DNA of 64,000 nucleotides from a virus. Its lineage: Duplodnaviria; Heunggongvirae; Uroviricota; Caudoviricetes. The stretch lies in IMG/VR virus record IMGVR_UViG_2721755646_000005, one strand, 5' to 3'. This document shows positions 48,001 to 51,000 of this stretch, one piece after another. The stretch's first letter is position 1. The number at the start of each line of letters is the position of its first letter. The position numbers are program-made.

Positions 48001-51000
48001 AATCAATGTTCCATTCCACGGAACAAATCTCTTTTTGGTTGGAATTAACAATGAGCCTTATGTTCCTATGAAGCCTGTTGTTGAAGGTATGGGGATGGTT
48101 TGGGCTGCTCAATTTGTTAAGTTAAAACAGAGGTTTGTCAAAGGTATTTCGGAAATCGAAATACCTTCTGCTGGCGGTAAACAGTTAATGACATGTCTTG
48201 CCTTTCGTAAATTTGCGGCTTGGCTTTCAAGCATTCAACCAAACAAAGTCCGCCCTGAAATCCGCGACAAGGTAATCCAGTATCAGGAAGAGTGTGACGA
48301 TGTGCTCTACGAGTACTGGACTAAAGGCCATGTGATTAACCCGCGCAAAGCTAAAAAGGCATTGCCGGGGAAAATCACCACTGAACAGCAGGAAGCCATT
48401 AAACAACTCGTCATGAGTCGCGGTCAGTCTCTGCCAAAAGAAAAACAGGCGAAGGCGATGATCACCATGTGGTCGTCACTGAAATCTCATTTTGGGTGTT
48501 CATACAAAGAAATCAGCGAGGAGCAGTTTACCGAAGCTCTGTCACTTGCTGCTCGCGTTCCGCTTGAAGGAGAGTTAATCGGCAAACAAGAGAAGAGCAC
48601 CAACGAGCTTTCCGCAAAAGAAGCAAACAGCCTTGTATGGCTATGGGATTATGCCAACCGCTCACAGGCATTATTCCGCGAACTGTATCCGGCGCTAAAA
48701 CAAATTCAATCGAACTATTCCGGCAGATGCTACGACTACGGTCATGAGTTCTCGTATGTTATTGGAATGGCGAGAGACGTTTTAATTAATCACACACGAG
48801 ATGTTGATATCAATGAGCCAGACGGACCAACGAATCTTTCCGCATGGATGAGACTTAAGAATAAAGAATTACCTCCTTCACCGCATCACTACTAACAGAT
48901 TGCCAACGAAATGACCCAGCTTCGGCTGGGTTTTTATCAGGAGTTCTCATGCTCTATAGCAATATATTGGCGCACGCCCGGCGATGTGCACCAGCGGAGT
49001 CGTGCGGCTTCGTGGTGAGAACGCCGGAAGGGGAAAGATATTTTCCCTGCGTGAATATCTCCGGTGAGCCGGAAGATTATTTCCGGATGTCGCCGGAGGA
49101 CTGGCTGCGGGCAGAAATGCAGGGGGAGATTGTGGCACTGGTCCACAGCCACCCCGGTGGTCTGCCCTGGCTGAGCGAGGCCGACCGGCGGCTGCAGATA
49201 AAAAGTGCACTGTCCTGGTGGCTGGTCTGCCGGGGGGAAATTCATAAATTCCGCTGTGTGCCACATCTGACAGGACGGCGCTTTGAGCACGGGGTGACGG
49301 ACTGTTACACGCTGTTCCGGGATGCCTACCATCTGGCGGGAATTGATATGCCGGATTTTGAGCGTGAGGATGACTGGTGGCGCAACGGTCAGAACCTTTA
49401 CCTGGACAATATGGCGGTCACCGGCTTTTACCGGGTGCCCCTGTCCTCTGCACAGGCGGGCGATATCCTGCTGTGCTGCTTTGGCGCATCGGTGGCCAAT
49501 CATGCCGCCATATACTGCGGCAACGGTGAACTGCTTCACCATCTGCCTGAACAACTGAGTAAACGGGAGAGGTATTCCGAAAAATGGCAACGACGAACGC
49601 ATTCAGCCTGGCGTCACCGCCACTGGCACGTATCTGCCTTCACGGGGATTTACAACGATTTGGCCGCCGCCTCAGCCTGTATGTGAACACGGCAGCGGAA
49701 GCCATCCGTGCCCTGTCGATGCAGATGCCGGGATTCCGCCGTCAGATGAACGAAGGCTGGTACCAGATACGTATTGCCGGTGATGACACGGCACCGGAGG
49801 CGGTGTACGCCCGTCTTCACGAACAGCTGGGTGAGGGAACGGTCATCCACATTGTGCCGCGACTGGCCGGGGCCGGAAAGGGTGGACTGCAGATTGTGCT
49901 GGGGGCGGCGGCCATCGTGGGGTCGTTCTTCACGGCCGGGGCATCAATGGCGTTATGGGGTTCAGCCCTGGCAGCCGGTGGTTTTTCTGCCACCACGATG
50001 CTGTTTTCACTGGGGGCCAGCATGATACTGGGCGGTGTGGCCCAGATGCTGGCACCGAAGGCAAAAACACCGGATTACCGCGCAACGGATAACGGCAGAC
50101 AGAACACGTACTTTTCCTCACTGGACAACATGATTGCTCAGGGGAACCCGATGCCGGTGCCTTACGGTGAAATGCTGGTTGGCTCACGGCGAATCTCCCA
50201 GGACATCAGTACCCGTGATGAAGGCGGTGACGGGAAGGTGGTGGTTATCGGGCGGCAGGCATAAAAGCGAAAAAATCCCGCAGTGACCGAAGGCTGCGGG
50301 AACAGAAAATGAAGATTAACCACAGGGAGTTTTGTTTTTATTGGCCCGAAAAAACTGTAACGCCCGGGAATGATATCTGCCACGGGGGCGTACAGAAAAT
50401 GTGAAGAAATTCAGAAATTTTATTCCGTCATGACACAGGCACCCTCCGGGGTGCCTGTCGTTTTTGGGGCATAAACAGATTCAGACATCAGACATCAGAC
50501 ATCAGACAGGAGAGGGGGACCGAGTGGGTAAAGGTGGCGGCAGGGCACACACGCCGGTTGAGGCAAAGGACAATCTTAAGTCCACGCAGATGATGAGCGT
50601 GATTGATGCCATTGGTGAAGGGCCGATTGAAGGTCCGGTGAAGGGGCTGCAGAGTATCCTGGTGAACAAAACCCCGCTGACGGACACGGACGGTAATCCT
50701 GTGATACATGGTGTGACCGCGGTCTGGCGCGCCGGGGAGCAGGAGCAGACACCACCTGAAGGCTTTGAGTCCTCCGGGGCGGAAACCGCACTGGGCGTGG
50801 AAGTGACGAAGGCAAAGCCGGTGACGCGCACCATTACGTCCGCGAACATTGACCGCCTGCGGGTCACCTTCGGGGTGCAGTCACTGTTGGAGACCACCTC
50901 AAAGGGCGACCGTAATCCCTCTTCTGTCCGACTGCTGATTCAGTTGCAGCGTAACGGTAACTGGGTGACGGAAAAGGATGTCACCATTAACGGCAAGACC

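Follow-up and report, generated by a model that had tools for sequence, protein, structure and literature searches.

In this work we analysed a heptanucleotide tandem array that lies just upstream of gene J in a Stx2c-type lambdoid prophage of E. coli O157:H7. The window is the whole stretch of prophage DNA considered here, 64,000 nucleotides in length. Our preferred reading, to which we give a probability of about three in four, is that the array is a short tandem duplication, in other words a simple-sequence length polymorphism, located in a leader of the late operon, and that it changes rarely, does not act as a switch and is probably near-neutral. The analysis disposes of the idea that Shiga-toxin prophages might carry a phase-variable host-specificity gene, and it establishes a GTG codon as the J start; in addition, the polymorphism of two, three or four units can be used as a stable lineage marker for the I–J modules of Stx prophages. 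The features of the region are the following.

49584..50264, + strand: gene I (tail assembly protein), the upstream neighbour; PGAP start at 49683
50270..50352, − strand: PasB-like sRNA gene, antisense in the I–J gap (homology to E2348/69 PasB, match to a Northern probe)
50435..50466, + strand: intrinsic terminator between I and J, with a 10-bp G+C-rich stem, a loop of 4 and a T-run
50464..50523, + strand: putative N-terminal extension of J from a TTG, considered spurious; in frame with J only at copy number 1, 4 or 7
50475..50480, + strand: degenerate additional unit CAGATT, which abuts the array on its upstream side (sequence, upstream haplotypes)
50481..50508, + strand: heptanucleotide tandem array TCAGACA x4, in the non-coding leader of the J mRNA (Tandem Repeats Finder, sequence, copy numbers of relatives)
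50509..50519, + strand: Shine-Dalgarno region of J, GGAGAGGGGGA, invariant in 86 loci
50524..54003, + strand: gene J (tail-tip or host-specificity protein), with a GTG start (PGAP start, alignment with lambda J, end of the ORF)

The array and the start of J

Tandem Repeats Finder reports the array at 50481-50508 with a period of 7, 4.0 copies, 100% matches and the unit TCAGACA; read in an alternative register, the same array is CAGACAT three times followed by CAGACAG, at 50482-50509, which confirms the heptamer repeat first noticed just upstream of J by a reading of the sequence only (hereafter the sequence-only reading). The 14-mer CAGACATCAGACAT, with one mismatch allowed, has three matches in the window, where shuffled sequence would give 0.01, an excess which argues that the heptamer array is the product of duplication rather than of chance. 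As in other short tandem duplications, the copies are perfect and arranged head to tail, and alleles differ by whole units on near-identical flanks. The array lies within the 259-nt gap between I (stop codon at 50262-50264) and J, between the intrinsic terminator at 50435-50466 and the Shine-Dalgarno sequence. It ends 15 nt before the GTG at 50524-50526, the distance that had been estimated, with GGAGAGGGGGA and four bases in between; the Shine-Dalgarno sequence is unchanged in the 86 loci, and the 4-nt spacer that separates it from GTG has five variants. On the other side, the CAGATT unit is kept in every repeat-carrying relative, and the upstream haplotypes all terminate in ...CATAAACA(G/A)AT.

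As judged from alignment and annotation, GTG 50524 is the true start of J. Translated from this codon, J aligns with lambda J from residue 1 on residue 1, without gaps and with 70 of 94 residues identical (74%); PGAP places the gpJ start at the same GTG, and DNA similarity with lambda begins 2–3 nt 5' of it. A mechanical ORF list starts J at TTG 50464 instead, which gives a protein of 1179 aa. This TTG is within the T-run of the terminator and is not preceded by a Shine-Dalgarno sequence, and its frame reaches J in the present 4-copy allele but meets a stop after 17 codons in the 2-copy phage BP-4795, and a stop before J in the 3-copy allele of strain HB6. A search for an N-terminal coding extension of J thus gave a negative answer, as the upstream frame is not conserved among relatives and the TTG has no ribosome-binding site. 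The repeat is, by the same comparisons, untranslated J leader and not coding sequence, so that the gain or loss of one unit could not frameshift J. The sequence-only reading had rightly taken GTG as the real start of J; its other possibility, that a start at TTG would place the repeat in coding sequence where a change of one unit shifts the frame, is contradicted by the broken TTG frame of the BP-4795 and HB6 alleles. In GenBank FM180578 (phage 2851) the CDS EP2851_69 starts J at the TTG, and J annotations of this kind carry a spurious N-terminal extension of 20 codons; in RefSeq genomes annotated by PGAP the J start is the GTG.

Copy number within the lineage and among relatives

A 471-nt stretch that includes the repeat is shared at 100% identity by phages 2851, 1717, YYZ-2008, phi330, Stx2a_F349, WGPS4 and Stx2_5044, all Stx2c/Stx2a-type lambdoid phages of E. 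coli O157:H7. Over the same 471 nt the 4-copy allele is identical to the base in at least 40 complete O157 genomes, and this query returns 67 records in the ≥99% identity band. Synthetic queries that carry the flanks of the window were compared with 5,426 complete E. coli genomes, a census blind to alleles with flanks diverged by more than ~3%: the 3-copy query has one full-length perfect match, in strain HB6, the 1-copy query has no match, and the best full-length matches of the 6-copy query are 4-copy alleles with a 14-nt gap, which means that there is no 5-, 6- or 7-copy allele with the flanks of the window in this set. The 3-copy allele of HB6 belongs to a second prophage type, ~96% identical to the prophage of the window. 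This second type carries four copies in FRIK944, whose prophage is 98.5% identical to that of HB6 over 9.4 kb. Copy number is effectively invariant within the lineage of the window. The sequence-only reading had itself named an invariant copy number together with a J start downstream of the repeat as the observations that would count against it, and this is essentially what is found within this prophage lineage.

Outside this lineage, copy number was counted in four samples.

Related Stx phages, first alignment: 4 loci; 2 copies, 4; 3 copies, 0; 4 copies, 0
IMG/VR, anchored on the upstream flank only: 37 loci; 2 copies, 34; 3 copies, 0; 4 copies, 3
IMG/VR, anchored on two units plus the Shine-Dalgarno sequence: 115 loci; 2 copies, 105; 3 copies, 5; 4 copies, 5
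Metagenome contigs: 42 loci; 2 copies, 42; 3 copies, 0; 4 copies, 0

Exactly two copies are present in 91% of unbiased loci (105 of 115 in IMG/VR). Neither the IMG/VR nor the metagenome samples contain a locus with 0, 1 or at least 5 copies, and exact scans of IMG/VR for the 0-copy and 1-copy junctions gave no match. The 2-copy loci cover at least six downstream and at least eight upstream flank haplotypes, and the same state is found in VT1-Sakai and PhiR12, which are only about 81–83% identical across the intergenic region. Several flank backgrounds carry alleles with three or four copies, and every one of these is very near a 2-copy allele: over 550 flank positions the window type shows two differences from the 2-copy allele nearest to it, and so does the 3-copy locus L134 from its own nearest 2-copy allele. 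In every locus sampled, both units are free of substitutions. Exact-pattern scans of the GTDB representatives (one genome per species) did not find the repeat, and a literature search with the repeat sequence on either strand returned nothing except an unrelated Drosophila paper.

When 119 distinct flank haplotypes are placed on a neighbour-joining tree, parsimony gives two copies as the root state and about seven copy-number changes, all gains, and nucleotide sites on the same tree change 1.88 times on average, with seven changes or more at 50 of 580 sites; recombination inflates all these counts, those of copy number and of nucleotide sites alike. The rate for the tract is thus an ordinary one, similar to that of a fairly variable nucleotide site and orders of magnitude below that of a contingency locus. 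The expectation that copy number could differ in related prophages was correct, since alleles with two, three or four units exist, but the tract is not a fast-changing one, with 91% of loci at two units and one allele identical in at least 40 O157 genomes.

Predicted effects on the J ribosome-binding site

The leader is predicted to be essentially unstructured, with an MFE of -2.8 to -3.3 kcal/mol at zero, two or four units; for the 4-unit leader the MFE is -3.3 kcal/mol (z = +1.85) and 198 of 200 shuffles have an equal or better fold. Global folds computed in three contexts give an accessibility of the Shine-Dalgarno sequence of 0.72–0.82 with two units and 0.76–0.78 with four, and the predicted accessibility of the Shine-Dalgarno sequence plus start codon is flat from two to seven copies. 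Similarly, the local opening energy of the Shine-Dalgarno sequence, or of the Shine-Dalgarno-to-GTG segment, varies by at most 0.4 kcal/mol over zero to seven units, with no trend. The lower accessibility that global folds seemed to give at zero or one unit did not reappear in local folding and is given no weight. The distance from the terminator hairpin to the Shine-Dalgarno sequence is 36 nt with two units and 50 nt with four, and both values place the hairpin outside the ribosome footprint. Folding thus predicts no structural effect of copy number on the J ribosome-binding site, and the proposal that a change in copy number could alter the spacing or the translation of J finds no support in an accessibility predicted to be flat over two to seven copies. 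A scan of 49500-51000, which covers the surroundings of the repeat, gave no sigma-70-like or other promoter-like site, and Rfam has no match at the gathering threshold in the I–J region; a permissive Rfam scan of 50150-50650 returned only chance snoRNA-like matches inside J.

Surroundings of the array in the I–J gap

The terminator at 50435-50466 is a strong one and folds with an MFE of -23.1 kcal/mol (z = -3.55), and its stem shows compensatory changes among phages (CACCC/GGGTG versus CATCC/GGATG). These compensatory substitutions suggest that a terminator between I and J has been kept within the late tail operon. An analogous hairpin followed by a T-run lies between I and J of lambda, at 15451-15480. 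The mosaic breakpoint between alternative J leaders falls directly after the T-run of the terminator. Leaders without the heptamer (WGPS8 type, PhiR5_1, E2348/69 PP6, PPompW/ASU11 and lambda) have unrelated sequences and an ATG as the J start, and the 2-unit leader accompanies GTG-initiated J alleles, as in VT1-Sakai and PhiR12, across divergent I–J regions.

Compared with lambda, the order of elements (I, hairpin and T-run, Shine-Dalgarno sequence, J) is the same and the J N-termini are homologous (MGKG...). The I–J gap of lambda is, however, only 60 nt long and has neither the heptamer nor PasB, and J starts there at an ATG, whereas the gap of 259 nt in the window contains an antisense PasB-like gene, a CRP-like box, the terminator and the repeat-bearing leader that ends at the GTG. 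A closer parallel is the PasB locus of prophage PP6 of EPEC E2348/69 (Pearl Mizrahi et al. 2021, PMC8550237; Zhu et al. 2026 preprint), where the antisense PasB terminator likewise follows I, and where a conserved TGTGA-N6-TCAGA box and a plus-strand terminator are also found; the leader that follows the terminator is a different module there, GTGAGTGAACAATTATCACGGTAAGAGGTGATGTA-ATG, without the heptamer. PasB of E2348/69 is Hfq-dependent and is encoded on the minus strand (1466343->1466261) between I (E2348C_1436) and J (E2348C_1437) (PMC8550237 table S6). The homologue in the window is identical to it at 60 of 83 nt, and its 3' half is well conserved, including the single-stranded AATCTTCATTTTCTGT; its terminator hairpin runs from 50300 to 50277 and its U-run from 50275 to 50270, and the Northern probe used for PasB (PMC8550237) matches the hairpin at 50277-50300. 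The repeat is outside the PasB transcript (83 nt, minus strand, ending 6 nt past the I stop), as it lies ~130 nt upstream of the PasB start and beyond the hairpin of the plus-strand terminator.

Further observations concern PasB itself. The PasB-like RNA is perfectly complementary to any read-through transcript of the late operon. PasB was reported to be higher in a non-activating than in an activating growth condition (PMC8550237), and CRP is not mentioned in the Pas preprint. The sequence TGTGA-AGAAAT-TCAGA at 50400-50415 has 9 of the 10 core bases of the CRP consensus TGTGA-N6-TCACA and lies in the most conserved non-coding block of the I–J region among 11 aligned lambdoid (non-lambda) phage sequences. 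This CRP-like box is ~40–45 nt upstream of the predicted PasB start, and the -10 element is TATCAT here, compared with TATAAT in E2348/69. If glucose is present in the activating medium, the reported PasB levels would be consistent with activation by CRP.

A model for the origin of the array

The above results fit a model in which two units, overwhelmingly the most common state, would also be the ancestral one. A conserved leader module, …GGCATAAACAGAT-TCAGACA-TCAGACA-GGAGAGGGGGA-NNNN-GTG, accompanies GTG-initiated J alleles, and slippage during replication, or else unequal exchange at the 7- or 14-nt repeat, would have given a few lineages one or two additional units; in the O157:H7 Stx2c-type prophage lineage of the window the 4-unit allele is fixed. 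During lytic growth, by reference to the biology of lambda, Q-modified RNA polymerase would pass the terminator, and the CA-rich, unstructured leader would be where ribosomes load de novo before initiating at the GTG. Extra units would merely extend an unstructured spacer, and for this reason they probably affect J expression little or not at all. The results establish where the array lies, that it is non-coding, how its copy number is distributed and that no structural effect is predicted, and origin by slippage and near-neutrality are what we infer.

One observation argues against a purely neutral spacer. There is no 0- or 1-unit allele anywhere among roughly 200 loci, despite about seven expansions of the tract and although all seven changes deduced on the tree are gains. 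Together with the invariance of the units, this is a hint of selection for two units or more, and the dimer may have a sequence-specific role. The same pattern would also fit low divergence combined with hitch-hiking with the adjacent invariant Shine-Dalgarno sequence.

Alternative explanations

This hint leads to the alternative that survives best, in which the heptamers would be a functional, dose-dependent part of J translation initiation, acting as an enhancer or a ribosome standby site for a weak GTG, at least two units being needed and extra units raising or tuning J. The lack of 0- and 1-copy alleles in the face of seven independent expansions is what such a role would predict, as is the invariance of both units next to spacer bases that vary, and the leader is less structured than its own shuffles (z = +1.85). 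Four ACA triplets are present between -43 and -16, and the leader thus has the ACA motifs, the lack of structure and the proximity to the Shine-Dalgarno sequence by which enhancers of this type are recognized. ACA-containing or CA-rich leaders boost translation in enterobacteria. As in these enhancers, the region 5' of the Shine-Dalgarno sequence is predicted to be single-stranded, is CA-rich and has a repeated ACA; other J leaders lack such a motif. J is still expressed from the heptamer-less leaders of the WGPS8 type, E2348/69 PP6, PPompW/ASU11 and lambda. In addition, the calculated accessibility is independent of copy number, and 91% of loci remain at two units, with no sign of tuning. We consider this explanation unlikely as a whole. 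Its restricted form, in which at least two units would be selected and single-stranded ACA would aid ribosome loading at the GTG, is if anything slightly less likely, and its strongest form, in which TCAGACA would be a selected and copy-number-tunable enhancer or standby platform for J, with two units or more required and the four units of the O157:H7 Stx2c-phage lineage raising J dosage and, through it, tail assembly or infectivity, seems improbable. A required dimer with dose-dependent enhancement would, if real, be a small natural example of the repeat-tuned translation of a phage structural gene.

Still less probable is that the heptamers form an array of binding sites, on either strand, for an sRNA that acts on the J leader or for a DNA-binding protein that acts on the PasB-like gene or the terminator. 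The units are conserved, and the intergenic region is regulatory in character, given the PasB-like sRNA, the CRP-like box and the terminator. Nevertheless, a period of 7 bp is out of step with helical phasing, ~130 nt and a terminator separate the repeat from the PasB start, the heptamer has no Rfam match and no literature, and a duplex of PasB with the leader is no better than one with random segments of the window. Pairing of PasB with the J leader was rejected as a candidate on these energies: the duplex has -38.2 kcal/mol, random segments of the window average -35.8 ± 8.2, and 39% of them do as well or better. Stretches of GcvB (CCUGUCUG) and MicF (UCUGUUUACCCC) may be complementary to parts of the leader, which makes them a tentative lead at most, as chance across ~100 sRNAs should give matches of such lengths. 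The anti-sRNAs AgvB and AsxR were also considered as occupants of the I–J gap and rejected, since Tree et al. (2014, PMC4104026) place them in the PR' moron region.

The last alternative, a contingency (phase-variable) locus in which units would often be gained or lost, so that J is switched or thrown out of frame and host range or tail production becomes diverse within a population, could appeal to a perfect tandem repeat adjoining a host-specificity gene, to an upstream TTG in frame with J in the 4-copy allele and to the existence of alleles with two, three and four copies, but it is already largely refuted, and its residual likelihood is close to nil, because the repeat is outside the coding sequence and not in a promoter spacer, has two to four units only, shows no base difference among 40 or more independent O157 genomes and changes at the rate of an ordinary variable site. 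The comparison with a known system of this kind leads to the same point. In non-typeable H. influenzae, 7-bp ATCTTTC repeats lie upstream of hmw1A and hmw2A, and their number modulates expression of the adhesins. The array studied here shares with them perfect head-to-tail heptamers 5' of a gene for surface or host recognition, with a copy number that differs by strain. In contrast with the hmw repeats, it has two to four units rather than about 10–30, 91% of loci are fixed at two and one allele is identical across dozens of isolates, no effect on expression is predicted, and the tract is flanked by a terminator and a Shine-Dalgarno sequence instead of promoter elements or transcription starts. 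Neither of two hallmarks of a contingency locus, a tract placed in coding sequence or in a promoter spacer and a long, heterogeneous tract, is seen in the heptamer array.

Other features of the window

Two other tandem repeats are present in the window. The first, at 36488-37182, has a 162-nt unit present in 4.3 copies with 96% matches; its units of 54 codons are in frame by length, and it is probably a repeated domain of a structural protein. The second, at 55679-55769, is a 45-nt x2 repeat with a nested 9-nt repeat, which encodes collagen-like G-X-Y repeats in a tail-fibre ORF located 3' of J and lom. Two identical ALIL pseudoknots (frameshift elements of the IS3 family) are found ~3 kb apart in opposite orientations, at 7076-7192 (−) and 10168-10284 (+), which suggests two IS copies flanking a segment of the early region of the prophage. 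Rfam matches elsewhere in the window, at 23547-23758, 21896-22136, 17511-17709 and 5988-6046, comprise the STnc100 sRNA, three tRNA genes, isrK, the C4 antisense RNA with its a1/b1 C4 targets, and the lambda cIII thermoregulator. Finally, an antirepressor (Ant)-like gene at 47849-48895 (phage 2851 annotation, PGAP) is inserted in the tail operon directly upstream of K, and looks like a moron-type insertion among the structural genes.
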